A stretch of DNA of 64,000 nt from Myxococcales bacterium (lineage in GTDB: Bacteria > Myxococcota_A > Polyangia > Fen-1088), in NCBI GenBank assembly GCA_025350815.1, contig JANXXE010000051.1, positions 37-64,036 of the forward strand, in the 5' to 3' direction. Both the position numbers and the translations under genes were made by a program. Of the stretch, positions 1 to 54,748 are shown piece by piece. The notes beneath the pieces are model-generated. The model saw only the letters and a program-made list of their open reading frames with translations, ran no database searches and was not told where the DNA came from. Numbering within the stretch: position 1 is the first letter of the stretch; each line of letters starts with the position of its first letter.

Positions 1-373
1 CCACCGGGTAGCGCGAGCCCACCGCCACGTCCGCCGTTTGTTCGGCGAAGGGCACCAGCAATTCTTTCGGCAACCCCCAGTCGAAAAATGCGCCGATCCG
101 GTTGCTGTCTGTCGCCGTCAGGTGCGTCACCTGGCCCAGTTCCAGTGCCGCCAGCTTGCGTGTCGCCAGCGGCCGGCCTTCCGAGTCGTTATAGATATAG
201 ACCGTCAGCTGGTCGCCCGTCTGCGCGTCGACTGGGATCTCGCTGCCCAACAACAGCACGACCGGTGCGCCGTCCCCGACGTTTTCGGGATCGACGGCCA
301 GAAACGCACCCGGCGGTCCGAAGCGGAGGATGGGCAGCGTGACCACCCGTCCGACAAGCTCGTGCGGCGTCAT
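1..373 (-). CDS. CvfB/YitL-family S1-like RNA-binding protein, N-terminal part (C-terminus lies beyond the left window edge)
   Basis: Own translation of the reverse strand from an ATG near 373: MTPHELVGRVVTLPILRFGPPGAFLAVDPENVGDGAPVVLLLGSEIPVDAQTGDQLTVYIYNDSEGRPLATRKLAALELGQVTHLTATDSNRIGAFFDWGLPKELLVPFAEQ. This is the tandem S1-like repeat pattern of the CvfB/YitL family. No stop is reached before position 1, which explains its absence from the ORF track. High GC3. Confidence 0.55.
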   Translation of the reverse strand, partial: MTPHELVGRVVTLPILRFGPPGAFLAVDPENVGDGAPVVLLLGSEIPVDAQTGDQLTVYIYNDSEGRPLATRKLAALELGQVTHLTATDSNRIGAFFDWGLPKELLVPFAEQTADVAVGSRYPV

Positions 374-529
374 GGCGACACATTCGCATGGATCAACGGG
401 GGATCGGCGGCGCTTCGAGACACGACGCCTGTCGGGAACCGCACCGCACGGCCGGTGTCTGACTGTGCAGCGAGGTGCCCATGTCCATCCGTCTTGCTGC
501 GCTGGCCGTGTTCGCGTCGCCGAGCCGCG

Positions 530-1006
530 CTAGTCGCCCTTGGGTGCTGTCGCCTTCTCGACCTTTTTCAGTTCGGCCAAATCAACAAGATCCTTTGGGC
601 GGCCAGAAGCGTGTTTGTTAATCAACAGCGCCTTGCGCCCAATGATCCGTACCGGAACGCCATCCAGATTTGCGGCCTCGCTCGAAAGAACGGCGGTCGC
701 AAAATCCACGCCAGAAATCGACGTCAGAAGATCAATTCGAAATGGCGGATGACCGAGTTGGACAACGTGCCCTGGGCTTGAAAACTGCTTTCGGAGATCC
801 CCAAGGTCCGCGAATCCGAACGCCGAAAGAACCCTCAGCAAGGCATCGGCATTGGCCGCTGTCGGCTCGACAAAGAAATCGATATCGCCTGTGAGCCGGG
901 GGTGCCCGTGAAAACCCACCGCGTGCCCACCCACCACCACATACTCAACCCCGTGCGAGTTCATCAACTCGATAAACTCGCGCCAGTCGGCCGGAATTTT
1001 CACCAT
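530..1006 (-). CDS. Pol-beta-superfamily nucleotidyltransferase-fold protein (MNT/AbiEii/MenT-like candidate toxin)
   Basis: 158-aa ORF with the hGG-x(n)-DhD nucleotidyltransferase signature (VVVGGHAVGFHGHPRLTGDIDFFV). Local GC is about 55% with many A/T-ending codons, against roughly 70% elsewhere. The start may instead be the internal Met of MNSHG (near 964). Confidence 0.6.
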   Translation of the reverse strand: MVKIPADWREFIELMNSHGVEYVVVGGHAVGFHGHPRLTGDIDFFVEPTAANADALLRVLSAFGFADLGDLRKQFSSPGHVVQLGHPPFRIDLLTSISGVDFATAVLSSEAANLDGVPVRIIGRKALLINKHASGRPKDLVDLAELKKVEKATAPKGD

Positions 1007-1136
1007 TGCTCCAAAAGCGAGTCGCCAGTTCGAGAACGATATCGAGGCGCTCCTGCGCGCCTAGCCCCGCATAGTAACGCGCGTCTGCGTTGTCCGCCTC
1101 TTCGAAACTCGAAAACGTCCGTAGCTGCCTCACCAT
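945..1136 (-). CDS. small hypothetical protein (63 aa) upstream of and overlapping the nucleotidyltransferase gene; candidate cognate antitoxin
   Basis: ORF track MVRQLRTFSSFEEADNADARYYAGLGAQERLDIVLELATRFW.... It shares the low-GC codon usage of the nucleotidyltransferase gene and overlaps its 5' end, as in a coupled pair. No family recognised. Confidence 0.3.
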   Translation of the reverse strand: MVRQLRTFSSFEEADNADARYYAGLGAQERLDIVLELATRFWSNGENSGRLARVYRVDELARG

Positions 1137-1235
1137 TTCCCCTCAATCATAACACGCCGCCATTGCCGTCCCGGTGACCTGCGCCCCGGCGTTGCTGTCG
1201 CGCAGCCGCCATCGACGAAGTAGGGTATCGCCCCA

Positions 1236-3593
1236 ATGTCGTCCCCTCTGTCGTTTTCAGTTTGGCTGCACGGGCAGCACCCGCAGATCCCCCTGCCTGG
1301 TGCCCAGGCCATCATTGCCCTGGCCGAGGGGGGCGCCACCGTGCCCTTCATTGCGCGCTACCGAAAGGAACAGACCGGCAACCTGGACGAGGTCGTGATT
1401 CGCAATGTGCTGGAAGCCAAGGAGCGCTGGGATGCGATTGGCAAGCGGCAAGCTTTCATCGTCGAGGAAATCACGCGGCAGGGAAAGTTGACGCCCGAGC
1501 TGGAGGCGCGCATTCGCACAACCTACGACGAGGCGGCGCTGGAAGATCTGTATTTGCCTTACAAGCAAAAGCGAAAGACCAAGGCGCAGGTCGCGCGCGA
1601 GGCGGGCCTGGAACCGCTGTGCGAATGGCTGTGGGCGTGCGCGCATGGCGAGGTCGATGCGGCCGGGGAGACGCCCGAGGCGCGGGCGGCTGGCTTCGTC
1701 GATGTGGATAAGGGCGTCGCCGACGTGGCGGCGGCGCTGGCGGGCGCGGGCGACATCGCGATCGAGCGTTTGTCCGAGTCGGCGGCCCTGCGCCAGCGCG
1801 TGCGGGAGTCGTTCTTCGAAAAAGGCTGCGCGCGCACGCGCAAGGCGGGCAAGGCCAAGACGCCCAGCCGGTTCGAGAATTATTTCGACCACCAGGAAAC
1901 GGTGCGCGAGTTGCTAAAGCCGCAAAGTTCGCACCGCTACCTGGCCATGCGTCGTGGCTGGATGGAAGAAGAGCTGACGCTGACGCTGGGTGGACGGCTG
2001 CCCGAGGACGCCGATGGCGCGAAGGATGATCCTTTGCTGGAGGATCTGGGCGCTGTGTTTGACGCCGCCGCGTGCACGGTTCCGTCGTTTGCGGGTGCGC
2101 CCTTTTTGAAACGCGCGGCGCGCCTGGCCCTGCGCGCGCACGTGGCGCCGTCGATTGAAAGTGAGGTCCACAAGGCATTGCGCGAAGTTGCCGATGCCGC
2201 CGCCATCGCCGTGTTCGCCGAAAATGTCCGCAAGTTGCTGCTGTCCGCGCCCTTCGGGCCGAAGGCCGTGCTGGGTGTGGATCCCGGGTTGCGCACGGGC
2301 TGCAAGCTGGCGGTGATCGAGTCGTCGGGAAAATATCTGGGCTCGGGGTTGATGCATCTCGAGACGCCCGCCGGCAAGGCATCGGCCGCGCCGGTGCTGG
2401 CGGATCTTGTGCAAAAGGGCGGCATCCGCGCCGTGGCTGTCGGCAACGGCACGGCCGGGCGCGAGACCGAGACCTTCGTGCGCGAATCCCTGCGCATCGC
2501 CAACCTGGATGTGCCTGTCGTCATGGTCAGCGAAGCGGGGGCCAGCGTCTACAGCGCCAGCGACACCGCCCGCGACGAATTCCCAGATCTGGACGTGACC
2601 ATCCGGGGCGCCATCTCGATCGCGCGCCGTCTGCAGGACCCCCTGGCCGAGCTGGTCAAGATCGATCCCAAGAGCATCGGCGTCGGGCAATACCAGCACG
2701 ATGTGTCGCCGGTGGCCCTGCAAAGAAGTCTGGATGACGTCGTCGATTCGTGTGTGAACCAGGTGGGTGTGAATCTGAACACCGCTTCGTATCACCTGCT
2801 GGCGCATGTGTCGGGCATCGGCCCCAGCCTGGCCCGCGGCATCGTCGAACACAGGTCGAAGATGGGGCTGTTCAAGTCACGCACGGAACTTCTGGATGTG
2901 CCGCGGTTTTCCAAGAAGGCCTTCGAGCAAGCGGCAGGCTTCCTGCGCATTCCCGAGGGCACCCACCCGCTGGACAACACCGGCGTGCATCCCGAACGCT
3001 ACCCCGCGTTGGAACGTCTGGCGGCGCGTCTGGGTGTGCCGGTGGCGGGATTGCTGGGGGCGGGCGTGAAAAGGGTGAAGGATTCGGCCGGGCACCAGGA
3101 CACCCTGAAGGACGAGCTGGGCGCGTTCACTTTCGATGACATCGTCAAGGAACTGGAGAAGCCAGGCCGCGATCCGCGCAGCGGTTTCGTTCCGTTTTCG
3201 TTCCGCGCCGACGTCCACAAGCTGGAGGATCTGCAGCCGGGAATGATGTGTCCCGGGATCGTCACCAACGTGACGAACTTCGGCGCGTTCGTCGACATTG
3301 GCGTCCACCAGGACGGCCTGGTGCACATCTCGCAACTGTCGGACAAGTTCGTCAAAGATCCGGCCGAGGTGGTCAGCGCGGGCGATCGCGTGACGGTACG
3401 GGTACTGGACGTGAAGCTTGACCGCAAACAGATAGCCCTGACCCTGAAGGCTGAACGGGGCGATGCGCCGCGGCCGCCTGCGCCGCAGCTGCGAAACACG
3501 CCCCGCGTGGATGGCCCCCGGCCCGCGGCGCCGCGCGCGCAAAGCCCGTTCAACAACCCCTTTGCGGCGCTGGCCAACAAGCCACGGCGTTGA
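1236..3593 (+). CDS. tex: transcription accessory protein Tex (YqgF/RuvC-like, HhH and S1 domains)
   Basis: 785 aa. N-terminal ATVPFIARYRKE motif and a C-terminal S1 domain (GMMCPGIVTNVTNFGAFVDIGVHQDGLVHISQLSD...RVLDVKLDRKQIALTLK). Confidence 0.93.
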   Translation: MSSPLSFSVWLHGQHPQIPLPGAQAIIALAEGGATVPFIARYRKEQTGNLDEVVIRNVLEAKERWDAIGKRQAFIVEEITRQGKLTPELEARIRTTYDEAALEDLYLPYKQKRKTKAQVAREAGLEPLCEWLWACAHGEVDAAGETPEARAAGFVDVDKGVADVAAALAGAGDIAIERLSESAALRQRVRESFFEKGCARTRKAGKAKTPSRFENYFDHQETVRELLKPQSSHRYLAMRRGWMEEELTLTLGGRLPEDADGAKDDPLLEDLGAVFDAAACTVPSFAGAPFLKRAARLALRAHVAPSIESEVHKALREVADAAAIAVFAENVRKLLLSAPFGPKAVLGVDPGLRTGCKLAVIESSGKYLGSGLMHLETPAGKASAAPVLADLVQKGGIRAVAVGNGTAGRETETFVRESLRIANLDVPVVMVSEAGASVYSASDTARDEFPDLDVTIRGAISIARRLQDPLAELVKIDPKSIGVGQYQHDVSPVALQRSLDDVVDSCVNQVGVNLNTASYHLLAHVSGIGPSLARGIVEHRSKMGLFKSRTELLDVPRFSKKAFEQAAGFLRIPEGTHPLDNTGVHPERYPALERLAARLGVPVAGLLGAGVKRVKDSAGHQDTLKDELGAFTFDDIVKELEKPGRDPRSGFVPFSFRADVHKLEDLQPGMMCPGIVTNVTNFGAFVDIGVHQDGLVHISQLSDKFVKDPAEVVSAGDRVTVRVLDVKLDRKQIALTLKAERGDAPRPPAPQLRNTPRVDGPRPAAPRAQSPFNNPFAALANKPRR

Positions 3594-3678: not shown

Positions 3679-6051
3679 ATGGATGGGGCAGCCTGGATCC
3701 GCAGCGTCGAAGACTCGAACGCGCAGGCCGAAAAGCGCGCGCGCCTGGCCGAGCTTTCTGCGTTCATGAACCTGGCGCACAGCCTGGAAGATCTTCTGCC
3801 GACGGCGCAGGCCCGCATCACGGAGTTCTTCGGGGCCGAACGTTCGACGATGTACGCGATCGATCCCGCCACAGACCAGTTCTATTCGATTGCCAAGACC
3901 GGGGCCGACATCAAGGAAATCCGCGTCCCGCGCGACACCACCAGCATCACCGGCTTCGTGGGTGTTTCGAAAGCGCCGGTCAATCTTCGCAACGTCTATG
4001 ACGCAGCCGAGCTGACGCGCGTCAGTCCCAAGCTGCGCTTCGACGATCGCTGGGACAAGGTCTCGGGCTTCAAGACGCGTTCGATGATGACGGTGCCCAT
4101 CCTGCGCGACAAGACCCTTCTGGGCGTCATCCAGGTCATCAACCGTCGGGACGGGTTGCCGTTCATGCCGCGCGACGTGGCCAATGCCGAAGAAGTGGCG
4201 CGCATGCTGGGGGGCGCGATAGCGACGCTGAATGCGAGGGCGGCCGGACCGAAGGCCGCGTCCTTCCCCGCCGTTCCGGTGGTGGCGGTGCCCCCGGCGT
4301 CAACACCCGTGGCGGCGAAAACGCCTGCCCGCGCGGGCAAATGGGATCTGTTGGTCGAATCCGGGGTAATCCCGCCCGACGCCCTGGCCAGGGGGCTGGC
4401 CACGGCCGCCGCCAGCGCCCTCGATCCCGCGCGCTATCTCGTCGAAAAGATGGGCATTAACCGCGTCGACGTGGAAAAGGCCCTGTCGCAGTTTCACGGC
4501 TGCGAGTTCTTCCGCTTCACTGGCAAGGAAACAATTCCCGAGGAACTGCGCAGTCGACTGCGCGTCGACTTTCTGAAGAAGATTTGTGCCGCGCCCATCG
4601 AACGCCGGGGTGCGCAGTTGGTGGTGGTTATCGACGATCCCGCCGACATTGATCGGACGGATGCCCTGCGCTTGCTGGACAGCGATCGGTCGTTGCTGAT
4701 TCAGGTGGGCTTTCGCGACGAGATCCTGGCCTGCATCGAACATTCCTACGGTCTGCGCGGCGACGTCGGCCTGATTTTGAAGGAACTGTCCACCGACGAA
4801 GGCACGGGCGCCATCGAGGAAACCGTCGTCGATGACGAAGGGCGGGGCGGCGAATCGGACAGCGCAGTCATCAAGCTGGCCAATCAGGTCATCATCGACG
4901 CCTACCGACGGGGCGCGTCCGACATTCACATCGAGCCGAACGGCAAGGAAGAAAACACCACCATCAGATTCCGCATCGACGGCGAGTGCGTGGCCTACCA
5001 GGACATTCCCCCGGCCTACCGCAATCCCCTGGTCGCCCGTTTCAAGATCATGTCGAAGCTGGATATCTCCGAGCGGCGCAAACCTCAGGACGGGAAGATT
5101 CGCTTTCGCATGCAGGACCGCCAGATCGAACTGCGCGTTGCCACCTTGCCGACGGTGAACGGCAACGAGGACGTGGTGATGCGCATCCTGGCGGCATCGA
5201 AGCCGTTGCCGCTGGCCGAAATGGGCATGAGCGAACGCAATCTGCGTGGCCTCAAGGAGATCGTCGCCAAGCCCTATGGCCTGGTGCTGTGTGTGGGGCC
5301 CACGGGCTCAGGCAAGACGACGACGCTGCATTCGGCACTGGGGCACATCAACACCGTCGACATGAAGATCTGGACGGCCGAAGATCCCGTCGAGATTACG
5401 CAGCCTGGCCTGCGGCAGGTGCAGGTGCAGGCGAAGATCGGCTTCGATTTTGCGACGGCGATGCGCGCGTTTCTGCGCGCCGATCCCGACGTCATCATGG
5501 TCGGCGAAATGCGAGACAAGGAAACCGCCAGCACCGGTATCGAGGCGTCGTTGACCGGCCATCTGGTGCTGTCCACCCTGCACACCAACAGCGCGCCCGA
5601 GACCATCACGCGGCTTATCGACATGGATCTTGATCCCTTCAGTTTTGCCGATGCGTTGCTGGGCGTGCTGGCGCAGCGGCTGGCGCGCGGGATCTGCAAG
5701 AAGTGCCGGCAGGAATACGTCGCCGACAAGGACGAGGTCACGGCCATCATCGAGGCCTTCGGTCCCGAACAGGCCGAGGCGCGGGGTTACCGTCTGGGTG
5801 AGGTGAAGCTGTTCCGCGGTGCGGGCTGCGAGACCTGCGGCAAGTCCGGCTACAAGGGCCGCGTCGCCCTGCACGAATTGCTGCTGAACAACGACGAGAT
5901 CAAGCACGCCATCACGCACCGGGCGCCGGTCGAACAGATCCGGCAGTTGGCGATGAAAGGCGGCATGACCACGCTGTTGCAAGATGGCATCGAGAAGGCG
6001 ATGGCGGGGAAGACCGACCTCAAACAGGTATTGGCGGTGTGCTCGCGATGA
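3679..6051 (+). CDS. GAF domain + GspE/PilB N-terminal domain + type II/IV secretion-system ATPase (PilB/GspE/MshE family)
   Basis: 790 aa. N-terminal GAF-like region; central T2SSE_N-like region; C-terminal ATPase with Walker A GPTGSGKTT, Asp/His boxes and a tetracysteine motif (CKKC...CETC). Confidence 0.88.
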   Translation: MDGAAWIRSVEDSNAQAEKRARLAELSAFMNLAHSLEDLLPTAQARITEFFGAERSTMYAIDPATDQFYSIAKTGADIKEIRVPRDTTSITGFVGVSKAPVNLRNVYDAAELTRVSPKLRFDDRWDKVSGFKTRSMMTVPILRDKTLLGVIQVINRRDGLPFMPRDVANAEEVARMLGGAIATLNARAAGPKAASFPAVPVVAVPPASTPVAAKTPARAGKWDLLVESGVIPPDALARGLATAAASALDPARYLVEKMGINRVDVEKALSQFHGCEFFRFTGKETIPEELRSRLRVDFLKKICAAPIERRGAQLVVVIDDPADIDRTDALRLLDSDRSLLIQVGFRDEILACIEHSYGLRGDVGLILKELSTDEGTGAIEETVVDDEGRGGESDSAVIKLANQVIIDAYRRGASDIHIEPNGKEENTTIRFRIDGECVAYQDIPPAYRNPLVARFKIMSKLDISERRKPQDGKIRFRMQDRQIELRVATLPTVNGNEDVVMRILAASKPLPLAEMGMSERNLRGLKEIVAKPYGLVLCVGPTGSGKTTTLHSALGHINTVDMKIWTAEDPVEITQPGLRQVQVQAKIGFDFATAMRAFLRADPDVIMVGEMRDKETASTGIEASLTGHLVLSTLHTNSAPETITRLIDMDLDPFSFADALLGVLAQRLARGICKKCRQEYVADKDEVTAIIEAFGPEQAEARGYRLGEVKLFRGAGCETCGKSGYKGRVALHELLLNNDEIKHAITHRAPVEQIRQLAMKGGMTTLLQDGIEKAMAGKTDLKQVLAVCSR

Positions 6052-48868: not shown

Positions 48869-50599
48869 ATGCAGCGAATATCCTGTGTTCTTGCGTCCTT
48901 GATGGTAGCCGGGTGCACTGGCGAGATAGCCGGCACCGAGGCGCCCGCGGGTGATCAGACAGTTGGCGGCGCGCCCGCATCGCATCCTTCGCCGGGACGG
49001 GGCACCGGGGGGGCGACCGGCAGCGGCACGGGGGGCGCAACACAGCAGCCGCCTGGTGCCGATCCGACGCGGCCGGTGGCGGCCTGCGGTGCCGGGTCGA
49101 AGCTTCCCGCGTCGCCGATGCGTCGCCTGACCCGCACCGAATACAACAACACGGTTCGGGATCTGCTGTTCGTGAATAGCAAGCCGGCCACGTCGGTATT
49201 CGACGAGGACGAAAAGTTCGGTGGTTTTTACGCCAACAGCATAGCCCCGATGACGCGCTCGGGTGCCGAGGCGTACATGTCCCTGGCCGAAAGCCTGGCG
49301 GCCAACGTGGATCTCAGCAAGCTTGTCACCTGCGATCCGGCGCAAGGCGGCGAGGCGGCCTGCGCCCGCACCTTCATCACCAGTTTCGGCAAGCGCGCCT
49401 ACCGCAGGACGCTGGATGAGGGCGACATCGGCAGGCTGATGACCGTCTTCACCGCCGGTCGGATGGGCGCCGACTTTCAGGCCGGCATCCGCCTGGTCAT
49501 CACCGCCGCCCTGCAGGCGCCCGGGTTCATGTATCGCCCCGAGGCATCTGTGGCGGACAAGATTGACGCATCGACGGTGGCGCTGTCCGGGTTCGAACTG
49601 GCGAGCCGCCTGTCCTACTTCATCTGGTCCAGCATGCCTGACGACGCCCTGCTGGCGCTGGCTGAATCGGGCGCGATCGCCAAGACAGCGACGCTGGAAT
49701 CCGAGGTTCGCCGCATGCTGGCCGACCCCAGGGCGTCGGACACTTTCTCCAGTTTTGCGCGCCAGTGGCTGGGCGTGCGTGGGATCCCAGACAAAGATCT
49801 CAAATTGTTCCCGGACTTCAACGATGCCCTGTGGGCGTCGATGGGCGGCGAGGTAGACGCGCTGACGGATTACGTCTTCCGTCAGGGCGAGGGCAAGCTG
49901 ACGACCTGGCTGACTGCGCCCTTCTCGTTCGTCGATCCGGCGCTGGCCAAGTTGTACGCGCTGCCCACGCCCAAAACCAAGACCTTCGACAAGACAGCGA
50001 TGCCCGCCAACCAGCGCTCGGGCGTCATCACGACGGCGGCCATGCTGACCATGCGCGCGTTCCCGGGCGAAGGGTCGCCGATCCAGCGCGGCAAGTTTGT
50101 CCGTGAAAGTCTTTTCTGTCAGACGCCCCCGCCCCCGCCCCCCGGTGTCAACGTCACGGCGCCCGCTCGCGATCCCAACAAGTCTACCAAGCAGCGCTTC
50201 GACGCCCACCGCACCGACCCGACGTGCGCCACGTGCCACGAGCTGATGGACCCCCTTGGCTACGCGTTCATGAACTACGACGCGATTGGGCGCTGGCAGA
50301 CCATGGACGGAAATTTCCCCGTCGATGCCAAGGGTGAAATCAAGGGCACAGTCAGCAGCAACGGCGCCTACGACGGGGCCATCGATCTCGGACACAAGCT
50401 GGCTGACAGCGGAGAAGTACAGCGCTGCGTCTCGCGGCAATGGCTGCAATTCTCGCTCGGTCGGCCGGACGAAGATGGCGATTCGTGTGCGGTCGACGAA
50501 CTGACCAAGAAGTTCGTCGGAGCGAACCAGGACATGCGCGAATTGCTGGTGGCTGTCGCGACCAGTTCGTCCTTTCGGTACCGACGGATCAGCAACTAA
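48869..50599 (+). CDS. DUF1592/DUF1588/DUF1585-family lipoprotein
   Basis: 576 aa. Lipobox MVAGC, a CATCHELMDP CxxCH-like motif and an architecture typical of the family paired with DUF1552. SD AGGAGG upstream. Confidence 0.65.
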   Translation: MQRISCVLASLMVAGCTGEIAGTEAPAGDQTVGGAPASHPSPGRGTGGATGSGTGGATQQPPGADPTRPVAACGAGSKLPASPMRRLTRTEYNNTVRDLLFVNSKPATSVFDEDEKFGGFYANSIAPMTRSGAEAYMSLAESLAANVDLSKLVTCDPAQGGEAACARTFITSFGKRAYRRTLDEGDIGRLMTVFTAGRMGADFQAGIRLVITAALQAPGFMYRPEASVADKIDASTVALSGFELASRLSYFIWSSMPDDALLALAESGAIAKTATLESEVRRMLADPRASDTFSSFARQWLGVRGIPDKDLKLFPDFNDALWASMGGEVDALTDYVFRQGEGKLTTWLTAPFSFVDPALAKLYALPTPKTKTFDKTAMPANQRSGVITTAAMLTMRAFPGEGSPIQRGKFVRESLFCQTPPPPPPGVNVTAPARDPNKSTKQRFDAHRTDPTCATCHELMDPLGYAFMNYDAIGRWQTMDGNFPVDAKGEIKGTVSSNGAYDGAIDLGHKLADSGEVQRCVSRQWLQFSLGRPDEDGDSCAVDELTKKFVGANQDMRELLVAVATSSSFRYRRISN

Positions 50600-50610
50600 C
50601 GGGGGAACAC

Positions 50611-51954
50611 ATGCGAATTTCCAATCTGACCCGCCGCCAGCTCCTCGGTTCGACTGCCGCCGGGGCCGTCCTTGCCCCCTTTGTACCGCTGTTGCCGGCG
50701 CGCGCTGCCCTCGACAAGCCGCCTTTGCGCTTGATCATGATGTACAGCTCGAACGGGACGGTGCGCGAAGCCTGGCTACCGACGGTTGCCAACGGCCAGC
50801 TGCAGCTACCCGCGATTCTGGCGCCGCTTGAGAAGCACAAGGGCGACATGATCGTCATAGATGGCATCAAGCACTCGGGCGGAGAAAAGGCGCAGGGCGG
50901 GCACGCGGGCGGGATCACTTCTTGCCTCACGGGCTCTGTGGGGAAGTTCGTCGGCACCGTCATTCGCGCGCCCAGTATTTCTGTCGATCAGCACATCGCC
51001 AATACGGTCTCCAACAATCTAAAGTTCAAGGTCATAAATCCCGGCGTTATCGTGGACACATTCGATGCAGAAGTCTGCGCATTTTCCTACACCGGTCCCA
51101 TGCAGTACGTATTTCCAGAAAATGACCCTTTGAAGCTGTATGGCAAGGTCTTCGCCAATACGCAATTGCCAAGCGGCGGCGTTCCCGGTCCAACAAATGA
51201 TCGAGCCAAGCTGGCCCGTCAAAGCGTCATTGACTACGTGCGATCCGATCTGGCGGCACTCAAGCCCAAGCTGGGCGTGGACGATCAGCAAAAGATTGAT
51301 CGCCACCTGCAAATCATTCGCGAGGTGGAACAAGGGCTGGCGACAGGAGCGGGCGCGGCCGCATCGGTCGACTGCAAAAAGCCCGGTGTCCCAAACGTCG
51401 CCATTTCAAATGATACGATTCCCAAAATTGGGGATCTGCAGACGGACCTCCTGGTCACCGCGATGGCGTGCGACCTGAGCCGCGTGGGGACGCTTGCGTG
51501 GGGGCGCGCCGGCTGCAACCATCGGTTTACGTGGCTCGGCAAGCAATTCGATCTGCCCGGCGGCGTTCAAGGCATTCATGCCGCCGCGCACGACGAATTC
51601 AACCCGACCATGCGTTCGCTGCTGGTGCAGATGCACACCTGGTACGCCGCCCGTGTGGCGGCCCTGGTCGATCGCCTGAAGGCGACACCCGAAGGCAACG
51701 GGACAATGATGGATAACACCTTGGTGGTTTGGTTCAACGAGATTGGCGTGGGGTCAACCCACTCGCTGAGCAACGTTCCGTGGGTTTTGCTTGGGCATGC
51801 GCAAAAGCAGCTCAAAACTGGCCGGCTTCTGTCGGTACCGGGCAAGCCCAACAATGCCCTGCTGGTTTCGCTGTGTAATCTGATGGGTCTCGTCACTGTG
51901 AATACTTTCGGCGATCCTCAGTTTGGCAGCGGTTCGTTGCCCGGCCTGGTCTAG
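50611..51954 (+). CDS. DUF1552-family Tat-signal protein
   Basis: Start at MRISNLTRRQLLGSTAAGAVLAPF (twin-arginine), 11 nt after the upstream stop. Confidence 0.72.
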   Translation: MRISNLTRRQLLGSTAAGAVLAPFVPLLPARAALDKPPLRLIMMYSSNGTVREAWLPTVANGQLQLPAILAPLEKHKGDMIVIDGIKHSGGEKAQGGHAGGITSCLTGSVGKFVGTVIRAPSISVDQHIANTVSNNLKFKVINPGVIVDTFDAEVCAFSYTGPMQYVFPENDPLKLYGKVFANTQLPSGGVPGPTNDRAKLARQSVIDYVRSDLAALKPKLGVDDQQKIDRHLQIIREVEQGLATGAGAAASVDCKKPGVPNVAISNDTIPKIGDLQTDLLVTAMACDLSRVGTLAWGRAGCNHRFTWLGKQFDLPGGVQGIHAAAHDEFNPTMRSLLVQMHTWYAARVAALVDRLKATPEGNGTMMDNTLVVWFNEIGVGSTHSLSNVPWVLLGHAQKQLKTGRLLSVPGKPNNALLVSLCNLMGLVTVNTFGDPQFGSGSLPGLV

Positions 51955-52018
51955 CCCGTCGGCTGTCAAACGCCGATGCGTGACGTTTCCGGGCTGGGAA
52001 CGTCTTGGTTGCTGACCT

Positions 52019-54748
52019 ATGAACCAAAGAATGAAAGCCTTGATCATTGTCGGCTTGTTGTTGGCGCCCTCCGCAGTTTTCGCACAGGGCAGCAACTCGG
52101 GGGCCATCGTCGGAAATGTGATGGACCAGGCGGGAAATCCGGTCAAGGGCGTGAAGATTGTCGTGAAATCCGACACCCAGATCGGTGGGCAGAAGACGGC
52201 CTATACCAACGACGAAGGCTTTTTTCGCATCATCCAGCTAGAGCCCGGTGAGTTCGAGATTCATGCGACGGCGCCTGGTCTTGCGCCCTACGTCCAAAAA
52301 GGCGTGAAGGTCGGCATCAGTGCGGCTGCCGAGATCTCACCCATCATGGAGGTGAAGACCGCCGAGGAGCAGGTCGTCGTGGTCCAGAAGGCACCCGTCA
52401 TCAGCACCACGACGGCCAACGTGAAAGAGGTCTACGACGTCGAGTTCATGGATTCTCTGCCCCTGGCCGCGCGCAACAACGGCCCGGCCAGTATGGCCTT
52501 GTCCGCCTCGGGGGCCATTCGTGGGCAGAAGATGCGCGGCGGTAATGACAACCAGACCGCCTACACCATGGATGGGTTCACCATGCTCGGCCAGTTTCCG
52601 ACGCTGAAGTCAGCCGCGGCCTACGAGATCCAGGGTGCAGGGTACGGCGCCGACAACCCAACGGTGACGGGTGGTGTCGTGAATCTGGTGACGCGGTCGG
52701 GTTCCAATCGTTTTGAGGCGCAGTTCGAGACCTTCGTGCAAAGTCCGCAGCTTCAGTTCTTCCGGGATTCGACTGACTCGCGTCTGGGCGAATCGTTCCT
52801 CCTGCTCAATCCGACTTTATCCGGTCCCATCATCAAGGATCGCCTGTGGTTCGCGGTGAATGCCGAATTCAATGAATTCGTCGTCGGCCGCGACAAGGAT
52901 CCCCTGGGCATTCTTCCGGATCCACCGAATTCTCTGAAGACGGTCATGAAGGGGACGGGGAAAGTGACCTGGCAGGCGAGCCCACGACACAAGGTGTCAC
53001 TGGTATTCAACTGGGACTGGTCCTTCGAGTTCAATCGCAACGGCGGTCTTGGCTATACGGCCGATGCGCAGGAGGATCGCTTGAGTCGTCGCTACTTCGG
53101 CGGCCTAATTTGGGAAGCCTTGCTCACCGATAAGCTGGTTTTTCGCAGCCAGCTTGGCGTGGTCATGTGGCCGGAGCACATCTATCCGCGCCTGTGTGCA
53201 ACCAATCCGAACTGTGACTTTGTGGTTCCTGTCGCCAATACCTACCCGCGCACCGTCTATTACAACAACAGCAATAACCACCAGAGAAATGACACGTCCA
53301 GCATCGAACTTATCAACCGACTGGAGTACTTTCTCGACACGAAGTCGTTCGGCGAGCACGACATCAAGGTCTCGGACACCTTCCGTGCAGAACGTCAGGT
53401 GATGCGGCAGGCCAGGCCGGGGGACCAGTTTCTCCAGTACAACGGCGACATCCCGCTGCAATTGACAGAATACTTTTCAAACGATCCGCGCTACGAAACC
53501 CCGCGCTACGGCTGGAATATTGTTGCGGGGATCACCCAGAAAAACACCACGACGCTGGCCGACACCTGGCGGGCCACGCGCCACCTGACGTTCACGCCCG
53601 CCATCAGCCTGGTGTTTGGACGCGGCGAAAATCAGCGGGGCGATGTCGCGGTCAACACCCTTGCCTGGGCGCCCAGCATCACGGCGGCGTGGGATCCGAC
53701 GCACGACGGGCGCACGGTCATCCGCGGCAGCTTCAGCTCGTACGTCGACGTCGAATTGCTGGACCTGGCGCGCTTCAGTTCGGGCAGTCAGGCGTCGAGA
53801 AACTGCCGATACAACGCGGCCAATGGTCTGTTCGATACAGGTTGCACGTTCTCCGGCGGTCTGTCGTCGAATACCTTTGGCTTGCCGTGTGGACCGACGG
53901 GCGTGGATATCACGGGGAAGAATTGCCGCGAGGCCCTCAGAATTCCTCGGACCTGGGAGTACACCACGGGCGCTGAGCGCGAGGTGGTCGAGGGCGTCGC
54001 ACTGGGATCTGACGTCATCTACCGGCGCTTCATCAACCAGTACGAGTCGCGTGAGACCAACCGCATCTGGAACGCGTCGGGCAGCGAGCTGGACCGAACG
54101 GGCAGCTACAGGAACGGTCGGGCCCAGACCATCATGGATATGGGAACACCTGATGGCGCTCGGCGTTCGTACCTCGGCGTCACGACGTCGCTCAGCAAGC
54201 GTGAAGGTAAGGTCAAGGCCCGCATCGCGTACACGTGGAGCCAGTTGCAGGGCACCGTTTACGGCGGCAACAGCAACCCCTATGGAGACATCACGCCCCG
54301 TGACGTCTATTTGAACGGCCCGTTGTCGGACGATCACCGGCACGAGGTGAAGGCGCTCATGACGTATCAGGCCACTTCATGGCTGAGCCTGGGCGCGACG
54401 GATACTTATTACTCGGGCGTCCCGTACAGTCGGCTGTTTCGCAATACGGAGACGGGCAATTTCGAAGACTACCGCGCGCGCAGGGGCAGCAATCCCGGGA
54501 CGAATATCAACGATCCCAGTGACGATCGGGAACTGAGGCTGCCGGACGTTCAGGATATGGCCGTCCAGGTGCGCGTGAATTTGCGGCCCCTCATTGGCCA
54601 CCGGTTGGAGTTTTTTGCCGACATACTGAACGTGCTGGCGCTGCGGACGATTACAAGTGTGCAGGAACAGGATGGTCCGCAGTTTGGCCAGCTTACGGGC
54701 CGCATGTCGCCGTTCAGGGTGCGCCTCGGCGCCAGCTACAAATACTGA
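52019..54748 (+). CDS. TonB-dependent receptor of the Oar type (CarboxypepD_reg-like N-domain + plug + 22-strand barrel)
   Basis: 909 aa. Signal peptide, CarboxypepD_reg-like domain (AIVGNVMDQAGNPVKGVKIVVKSD...), C-terminal barrel ending ...LGASYKY. Confidence 0.85.
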   Translation: MNQRMKALIIVGLLLAPSAVFAQGSNSGAIVGNVMDQAGNPVKGVKIVVKSDTQIGGQKTAYTNDEGFFRIIQLEPGEFEIHATAPGLAPYVQKGVKVGISAAAEISPIMEVKTAEEQVVVVQKAPVISTTTANVKEVYDVEFMDSLPLAARNNGPASMALSASGAIRGQKMRGGNDNQTAYTMDGFTMLGQFPTLKSAAAYEIQGAGYGADNPTVTGGVVNLVTRSGSNRFEAQFETFVQSPQLQFFRDSTDSRLGESFLLLNPTLSGPIIKDRLWFAVNAEFNEFVVGRDKDPLGILPDPPNSLKTVMKGTGKVTWQASPRHKVSLVFNWDWSFEFNRNGGLGYTADAQEDRLSRRYFGGLIWEALLTDKLVFRSQLGVVMWPEHIYPRLCATNPNCDFVVPVANTYPRTVYYNNSNNHQRNDTSSIELINRLEYFLDTKSFGEHDIKVSDTFRAERQVMRQARPGDQFLQYNGDIPLQLTEYFSNDPRYETPRYGWNIVAGITQKNTTTLADTWRATRHLTFTPAISLVFGRGENQRGDVAVNTLAWAPSITAAWDPTHDGRTVIRGSFSSYVDVELLDLARFSSGSQASRNCRYNAANGLFDTGCTFSGGLSSNTFGLPCGPTGVDITGKNCREALRIPRTWEYTTGAEREVVEGVALGSDVIYRRFINQYESRETNRIWNASGSELDRTGSYRNGRAQTIMDMGTPDGARRSYLGVTTSLSKREGKVKARIAYTWSQLQGTVYGGNSNPYGDITPRDVYLNGPLSDDHRHEVKALMTYQATSWLSLGATDTYYSGVPYSRLFRNTETGNFEDYRARRGSNPGTNINDPSDDRELRLPDVQDMAVQVRVNLRPLIGHRLEFFADILNVLALRTITSVQEQDGPQFGQLTGRMSPFRVRLGASYKY

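Follow-up and report, generated by a model that had tools for sequence, protein, structure and literature searches.

A probable MenAT1-like toxin-antitoxin cassette with out-of-frame overlapping genes next to tex in a Myxococcales bacterium

The window analysed here, a 64,000-nt stretch of contig JANXXE010000051.1 from a Myxococcales bacterium (GCA_025350815.1), carries between a CvfB-like gene and tex a short block of low G+C (GC) content that encodes a minimal Pol-beta-fold nucleotidyltransferase (NTase) and, overlapping the 5' end of its gene, a 63-aa open reading frame (ORF). The block lies on the minus strand at 530–1136, and all positions follow the numbering of the whole window. We consider it probable that this block is an autonomous, horizontally mobile two-gene toxin-antitoxin (TA) cassette of the MenAT1 kind. 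The evidence observed here consists of the fold and homology of the NTase, conservation of its catalytic residues, strict co-occurrence and order of the two genes, dual-coding constraint in their overlap, variable genomic context and a compositional anomaly. A sequence-only reading of this DNA had already proposed a toxin-antitoxin or defence pair, and at the level of sequence comparison our results support that proposal: the NTase is not a housekeeping gene held in cvfB–tex synteny, the small ORF is conserved and coding, and the dip in GC content is significant.

To characterize the NTase, we compared it with domain models, homologues and solved structures. The predicted Pol-beta enzyme with a GG...DID signature held up: the motif, VVGGHAVGFHGHPRLTGDIDF, comprises a glycine-rich loop and the DxD metal-binding motif, and the fold was recovered by an AlphaFold2 (AF2) model and Foldseek. 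When both ORFs were searched against Pfam, the small ORF gave no match and the NTase scored above the gathering cutoff (GA) of DUF2204 (PF09970; 37.4 bits, GA 20.3; residues 9–151 on profile positions 6–149 of 181) and, as second match, of AbiEii (PF08843; 26.9 bits, GA 22.5). PADLOC AbiEii models matched it weakly (2.7e-5), DUF6036 and NTP_transf_5 stayed below their Pfam thresholds, and NCBIfam held no matching model. More than 2246 homologues, typically about 60% identical, were found in metagenomes, Planctomycetaceae and Polyangium, labelled DUF2204 and/or DUF6036 (PF19502). A profile built from 30 homologues and run against all Protein Data Bank (PDB) sequences hit MenT1 (8an4/8an5/8rr5) with E=4.5e-8 over residues 13–148, the next match being TM1012 at E=0.24. 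The AF2 model had a predicted local distance difference test (pLDDT) of 85.4 and a predicted template-modelling score (pTM) of 0.81; its best Foldseek match in the PDB was again MenT1 (8an5_B, template-modelling (TM) score 0.64), with about 21% identity in the structural alignment. The NTase thus has a Pol-beta fold, and its nearest solved relative by both profile and fold is Mycobacterium tuberculosis MenT1, which sharpens the MenT/AbiEii-type assignment made earlier. A distant homologue, 33% identical, forms the N-terminus of a 635-aa 'DUF6036 family nucleotidyltransferase' on a Fibrella sp. plasmid (CP155474.1; L174:224-4399); there a non-overlapping 75-aa ORF precedes it and a canonical AbiEi/AbiEii pair adjoins.

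We then placed the active-site residues by profile alignment to MenT1 and took their roles from published work (PMC11375011, PMC10435456), passages of which report that T39, D41, K137 and D152 of MenT1 matter by mutation. The nucleotide phosphate contact R37, the phospho-acceptor T39 and the Mg2+-binding D41 and D43 of MenT1 align with residues of the same number in the window NTase, and K137 (nucleotide binding), R146 (ATP contact in a published molecular dynamics simulation), D149 (ribose 3' OH contact) and D152 (needed for activity on total RNA) align with K131, R136, D139 and D142, respectively. Conservation was scored in 69 distinct complete homologues from fetched loci, which are 42–61% identical to the window NTase. 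R37 and T39 are kept in all of them, R136, D139 and D142 in 68, and D41, D43 and K131 in 67.

The small partner turned out to belong to a large family. A word-indexed search returned four relatives, and a hidden Markov model (HMM) search of 1.84 billion cluster representatives returned at least 473 at E<=1e-3, mostly 61–66 aa long and matching end to end. Family members begin with a strand-like x-V-x-V-F-x-S-F and an acidic helix E-E-A-x-x-A-D-x-x-Y-Y (a stretch also written F-x-S-F-E-E-A-x-x-A-D-x-x-Y-Y), continue with L-T-P-x-E-R-L-x-I-L-L-E-L and a variable linker, and end in the tail R-L-x-R-V-Y-R-V-x-E-L; R53 never varies, and V54, R30 and R56 hardly ever do. The AF2 model (pLDDT 81) predicts helices at 11–23 and 27–44 and a coil or unstructured tail at 45–63, and neither this model nor the Pfam scans revealed a detectable DNA-binding domain. 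No family match was obtained in Pfam (60 members scanned), NCBIfam or PADLOC; Pfam matches to WHIM1 and Vts1 fell below threshold and were treated as noise. The small protein is therefore a genuine protein family that is absent from Pfam, NCBIfam, PADLOC and the PDB. Its annotation in RefSeq varies: on plasmid pGM02 of Geminocystis sp. NIES-3708 (L169:2353-2535) the partner is called a 'toxin secretion, membrane fusion protein', and on plasmid pACPOL3 of Acidisarcina polymorpha (L170:2326-2544) it is unannotated, the start of the NTase being apparently extended upstream over the small ORF (194 aa vs about 170).

The linkage between the two genes is strict. We sampled 80 metagenomic loci with NTase homologues and six others, using an iterated HMM for the small ORF. 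It lay directly upstream on the same strand at all 81 loci with enough upstream sequence, and the five loci where it was missing have less than 25 nt of upstream sequence. In each of the 81 the NTase is in the +1 frame relative to the small ORF. The two ORFs share 59 nt at 39 of these loci and 62 nt at 21; the remainder have overlaps of 47–68 nt. Even the Acidisarcina plasmid copy, with as little as 36% identity in its NTase, retains the arrangement, and no third conserved gene was found among the 47 loci with flanks. In the window, the overlap of the small ORF with the 5' end of the NTase gene, as first noted from the ORF list, measures 62 nt from ATG 1006 and 59 nt from an alternative GTG at 1003. 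The GTG start, which yields a protein of 157 instead of 158 aa, has a GGAG 5 nt upstream, gives the register usual for the NTase family and is the start annotated on a near-identical Logan contig. Both cassette genes begin, on the coding strand, with the same string G-G-x-x-A-A-T-G-G-T-G-A (ATG-GTG-A), a direct repeat at 1000–1012 and 1130–1142 that creates the ATG/GTG ambiguity in both ORFs.

Synonymous choice is restricted where the frames overlap. The relative synonymous-codon entropy of the NTase is 0.51 in the overlap vs 0.88 in the next 25 codons (Mann-Whitney p=0.001), and third positions carry 0.91 bits of information in the overlap vs 0.53 outside. NTase V19 is always GTT, as the TGA stop of the small ORF takes its T from this codon; N15 is AAC in 46 of 48 cases and L7 is TTG in 38 of 42. 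The invariant R53 and V54 of the small protein are encoded within the overlap; the tail R-V-Y-R-V-x-E-L of the putative antitoxin and the first helix of the putative toxin, D-L-R-E-F-I-x-L-L-N-S, share the same bases. This restriction indicates that both frames are under protein-level selection, and it bears out, together with the number of relatives and the linkage counts, the expectation that the small ORF is conserved and coding. There is no need to invoke a programmed +1 frameshift fusing the two ORFs, and we rejected it: protein-level conservation of the small-ORF tail extends to a fixed stop, and the NTase gene possesses a Shine-Dalgarno sequence and a start of its own. A palindrome, GCGAGTTTATC-GAGTT-GATGAACTCGC, also lies within the overlap. 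It is present in the minimum free energy and centroid folds of the window sequence, but with z = -0.86. Across 72 loci 69% of palindrome cells pair vs 27–46% in slid controls, most pairs being fixed by the coding sequence; the pair 54–78 alone shows AU/CG exchange (31/7, with 34 unpaired), which is confounded by genome GC content. RNAalifold found no consensus structure for the palindrome across these 72 loci.

These data, read by analogy with MenT1, suggest how the cassette might work. The toxin would be the downstream minimal NTase, which would bind nucleoside triphosphate (NTP) and Mg2+ through D41/D43, R37 and K131 and add nucleotides to the 3' CCA ends of tRNA, blocking aminoacylation and leading to translation arrest. 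The upstream small protein would be an antitoxin that is translated first from the common mRNA and binds the toxin directly to neutralise it. In addition, it may induce auto-phosphorylation at the invariant T39, an effect that MenA1 has on MenT1. Homology and architecture are thus what point to toxicity, to tRNA as the target, to which partner is the toxin and to the mode of neutralisation. Since the 59–62-nt out-of-frame overlap is conserved, ribosomes translating the antitoxin would pass the Shine-Dalgarno sequence and start codon of the toxin gene and go on through its first 20 codons. The overlap may thereby play a regulatory role, coupling toxin synthesis to antitoxin synthesis, probably limiting the toxin and making the genes hard to separate. 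We advance a stronger version only as a tentative suggestion, and one we find somewhat doubtful: the overlap would be a functional device in which ribosomes finishing the antitoxin control toxin initiation, possibly via the palindrome, and would define a 'genetically interlocked' TA family whose new antitoxin, though unrelated to MenA1, might use T39 auto-phosphorylation to neutralise a MenT1-like toxin. Were this true, neither gene could be lost, moved or mutated in the overlap independently.

Next, composition and genomic context suggest that the pair is mobile. Its GC content had been put at 55% against 70% elsewhere. These figures need correction, to 57.0% against 65.6% for the whole window (standard deviation 3.1% for 607-nt windows), and the dip itself is significant: only 0.98% of 607-nt windows reach a value as low. 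The GC content at third codon positions is also lower, as stated before, at 0.63 for the NTase and 0.56 for the small ORF vs about 0.80 for the long ORFs of the window. Elsewhere no flanking gene family recurs in more than three of the 47 loci with flanks. The copy on the Polyangium jinanense chromosome lies between an isocitrate/isopropylmalate dehydrogenase and an FAD monooxygenase gene; a metagenomic copy sits in a toxin-antitoxin island (Unstab_antitox, MqsA-like, PIN/HicB and Xre-RES genes); the cyanobacterial plasmid pGM02 carries it inside a type I restriction system, flanked by hsdS and hsdR and adjoined by a VapC pair; and in the Acidisarcina plasmid it lies between copies of the insertion sequence (IS) IS6, adjoined by a RES toxin and a recombinase. 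Six plasmid records hold a homologue, and none was found among 50,697 phage records. One copy has decayed (L002:5882-6352; GCA_043754455.1, JAYUUT010000331.1). Its small ORF is intact and 81% identical to that of the window and its NTase is truncated to 44 aa, as one would expect were the NTase the harmful member of the pair. Two direct repeats enclose what is left of the cassette: one of 47 nt, whose copies are 81% identical and 398 nt apart, and one of 22 nt, with 95% identity and a distance of 362 nt. A WYL regulator lies alongside, as does a type I CRISPR-Cas locus (Cas3, GSU0053).

Around tex itself, two Logan contigs of the same strain have the identical order tex / pair / cvfB. The nearest other Tex proteins in a protein search are 72–80% identical and labelled as Polyangia or Myxococcales metagenome-assembled genomes (MAGs), and a genome-contig scan with Tex gave one relative above 52% identity (L004, 69%). 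The closest tex relatives (L171/L172 and L173, 78%; L004, 69%) lack both the pair and a cvfB-like gene upstream of tex, and homologous pairs occur in unrelated contexts; the NTase is therefore not a housekeeping gene in cvfB–tex synteny. We infer insertion at the cvfB–tex site from sequence composition, missing synteny and the behaviour of the cassette elsewhere. A search of the window for flanking direct repeats or a target-site duplication yielded short chance-level matches only. In the 69% relative (Myxococcales MAG fen_1158; L004:2050-3761), a different two-gene candidate defence module lies upstream of and divergent from tex; it encodes a 367-aa AAA_21/AAA_15 ATPase (PADLOC PDC-M38A 7.5e-55, AbiLi 1e-52) together with a 203-aa DUF3226 protein, and its GC content likewise dips, to 0.56–0.59. 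In this clade, small mobile modules may repeatedly land in the region upstream of tex.

Several observations weigh against a MenAT1-like cassette. The AbiEii match covers residues 22–76 only, the catalytic core. In Foldseek, TM1012, LnuA and ANT(2'')-Ia score about 0.5–0.6 against the NTase model (LnuA 0.53, ANT(2'')-Ia 0.53), so that the small-molecule NTases LnuA and ANT(2'')-Ia are, as judged from the model, only slightly less similar in structure than MenT1. On the side of the partner, searches of the PDB with two profiles at E<=10 gave no match to the small protein, the MenA1 chain of 8an5 included, and Foldseek found no fold match for its model. It thus has no detectable sequence or fold similarity to MenA1, which is one long helix, the window partner being predicted to form two short helices and a conserved tail. 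These blanks, together with those in Pfam, NCBIfam and PADLOC, indicate that it is not a homologue of a known MenA or AbiEi antitoxin (MenA1, or the COG5340/COG4861 types); of the MenAT/AbiE-like pair envisaged in the sequence-only reading, the small upstream partner and the gene order stand. A sigma-70 consensus scan of 1137–1235 gave no match, and neither a promoter nor an operator was detected there, where the cassette promoter presumably lies. No empty cvfB–tex site was found, and the nearest tex neighbourhoods (Tex <=80% identity) are not syntenic with the window; comparison of the junction in relatives, proposed as a check, thus established that the pair is absent there, and the junction itself is not conserved. 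Homology is also no guarantee of toxicity, since MenT2 is non-toxic on overexpression according to passages of PMC10435456. Finally, the literature searched for DUF2204, DUF6036, PF09970 and COG4914 yielded no relevant work on function or partner, and we located no experimental record there for the family of the window NTase and its small protein as recognised by sequence.

Three other explanations have to be weighed, and they fit the evidence less well than a MenAT1-like cassette. The same cassette could be mainly an abortive-infection or phage-defence module like AbiE, with the same biochemistry in another role, in which the NTase would be freed when a phage depletes or inactivates a labile small protein. 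The AbiEii homology in PADLOC and Pfam speaks for this, as do the copies between hsdS and hsdR, beside the type I CRISPR-Cas locus and beside the Fibrella AbiEi/AbiEii pair, and the fact that the equivalent tex-upstream position in the 69% relative holds an AbiL-like/PDC-M38 pair. However, most of the 47 flanked loci have no defence neighbours and no neighbour is recurrent, the neighbours in the window are core genes, the blank among phage records gives no sign of a phage arms race, the PADLOC scores are weak, and no defence phenotype is known for this NTase family. A mainly defensive role is in our view unlikely.

If, on the other hand, the roles were reversed as in type VII MntA-HepT, the NTase would be protective and would nucleotidylate and inactivate, or else regulate, a 63-aa effector. 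Minimal NTases are established antitoxins in MNT-HEPN systems, and the most conserved part of the small protein, an Arg-rich tail (R50, invariant R53, R56), could bind nucleic acid. We hold such a reversal to be very improbable, since neither HEPN nor any other toxin domain occurs in the partner, the NTase has a toxin, MenT1, as its nearest characterised relative, the small protein comes first in the usual antitoxin-first order, and the decayed copy has kept the small ORF and lost the NTase, the opposite of what a toxic small protein would predict. Improbable, too, is a non-toxic enzyme that acts on a small molecule (antibiotic nucleotidylation as by LnuA or ANT(2'')-Ia) or benignly on RNA, with the small protein as an accessory or regulatory subunit. 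By profile, no other solved NTase comes within about seven orders of magnitude of the match to MenT1, the equivalents of the MenT1-specific T39, R37, K137 and D152 are conserved, and neither an obligatory overlapped small partner nor toxin-antitoxin island and IS contexts are features of resistance NTases. These points outweigh the Foldseek matches to LnuA, ANT(2'')-Ia and TM1012, the MenT2 precedent and a Pfam Aminoglyc_resit (PF10706) match that is weak (E=0.035) and, at 14.7 bits, falls below the cutoff of 21.

The features of the MenAT1-like cassette and its surroundings are collected in Table 1. The flanks named at the outset, a CvfB-like gene and a tex gene from which the cassette diverges, were confirmed by Pfam domains and coordinates; the CvfB-like protein matches S1_2 (PF13509) with E=9.4e-15 and CvfB_1st weakly at 0.25. 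A terminator scan of the 374–529 spacer showed no terminator-like site, so read-through from the cassette into the CvfB-like gene is possible. An Rfam scan around the cassette gave no match.

Table 1. Coordinates of the cassette and neighbouring features in window numbering
Feature	Position	Strand	Description
Small ORF	1136..945	-	63 aa; putative antitoxin; from the ORF listing
NTase	1006..530	-	putative MenT1-like toxin of Pfam DUF2204; 158 aa (start ATG 1006) or 157 aa (start GTG 1003)
Dual-coding overlap	945..1006	-	last ~20 small-ORF codons and first ~20 NTase codons (helix 1); NTase in +1 frame
P36-R37-L38-T39-G40-D41-I42-D43 codons	878..901	-	metal-binding DxD and the threonine matching MenT1 phospho-acceptor T39
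C-terminal NTase motif N130-K131...R136-P-K138-D139-L-V-D142 codons	581..619	-	aligned to MenT1
Palindrome / possible mRNA hairpin in overlap	953..981	-	inverted repeat; 11 bp in the window
Divergent intergenic region, small-ORF start to tex start	1137..1235	.	99 nt; presumed to hold the cassette promoter
Spacer, NTase stop to start of co-directional CvfB-like gene	374..529	.	156 nt
CvfB-like flanking core gene, S1_2 domain	2..373 (373..<1)	-	N-terminal 124 aa, rest beyond window edge
tex flanking core gene	1236..3593	+	785 aa; divergent from cassette; full Tex domain set

Two further parts of the window deserve mention. The gene after tex (3679–6051) encodes a 790-aa GAF-MshEN-T2SSE ATPase, and on a 120-kb Joint Genome Institute (JGI) contig (L168) a 766-aa protein of the same architecture lies about 5 kb from a copy of the NTase pair; that contig may come from a relative of the source organism in which the cassette occupies another site. 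GC content also drops markedly in one other block of the window, 50440–54748 (GC 0.55–0.60 over about 50.7–53.7 kb), which encodes a 504-aa DUF1552/HXXSHH protein and a 909-aa protein that begins with a CarboxypepD_reg domain; PADLOC matched neither of them. The block may be another acquired segment or merely a set of compositionally different genes.

The interlocked coding over 59–62 nt and the undescribed putative antitoxin family make the cassette worth following up. The MenT1-like branch to which it belongs is large and uncharacterised, with more than 2,000 homologues in Myxococcota, Planctomycetota, Cyanobacteriota, Acidobacteriota and many metagenomes. To our knowledge, experiments on MenT-type NTase toxins have been confined almost entirely to M. 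tuberculosis and streptococcal AbiE. If confirmed, the cassette would add a new antitoxin family to the MenAT group, would test the generality of antitoxin-induced auto-phosphorylation of the conserved threonine, and would be a clean natural case of long toxin/antitoxin dual-coding. Since the partner family is undescribed in databases and sometimes mis-annotated or uncalled, DUF2204/DUF6036 'nucleotidyltransferase' genes of about 150 aa are worth checking for an overlapping upstream gene of 60–65 aa.

Among known systems, the antibiotic NTases LnuA and ANT(2'')-Ia are matched by the window NTase at the level of fold only, and it falls outside Aminoglyc_resit. It lies above the DUF2204 (PF09970) threshold over nearly its full length; DUF2204 and DUF6036 (PF19502) are uncharacterised domain families, with no conserved partner described in the literature we located. 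With MNT-HEPN (MntA-HepT, type VII) the cassette shares a minimal Pol-beta NTase, a second small gene and a mobile two-gene organisation. In those systems the NTase is the antitoxin and a HEPN RNase the toxin, whereas no HEPN domain or RxxxxH-type partner was found here (60 family members, Pfam) and the window NTase is closer to MenT1 than to MNT. AbiE (AbiEi-AbiEii, type IV) and MenAT3/MenAT4 have an NTase of the same superfamily and the same antitoxin-first order, and the AbiEii models of Pfam and PADLOC match the N-terminal catalytic core of the window enzyme. However, AbiEii, MenT3 and MenT4 are about 290–310 aa long with a larger C-terminal domain, and their antitoxins are large winged helix-turn-helix proteins (AbiEi, COG5340) that autoregulate transcription, unlike the 63-aa window partner with no detectable DNA-binding domain.

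The closest counterpart is MenAT1 of M. tuberculosis (Rv0078B-Rv0078A; 8AN4, 8AN5, 8RR5). Like it, the window cassette has an NTase of less than 200 aa, for which MenT1 is the best profile and fold match and with which it shares identical residues at all the active-site positions aligned above, and a very small protein encoded directly upstream on the same strand (MenA1 68 aa vs 63 aa here, PMC10435456). They differ in that the window NTase is only about 21% identical to MenT1 in structural alignment and has DUF2204, not DUF1814, as its best Pfam match. According to passages of PMC10435456, MenA1 has about 21 known homologues, against at least 473 clusters for the window partner family, and those passages contain no description of a 59–62-nt out-of-frame overlap. 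They do describe the MenAT1 region as compositionally atypical and presumably acquired, as the window cassette appears to be.

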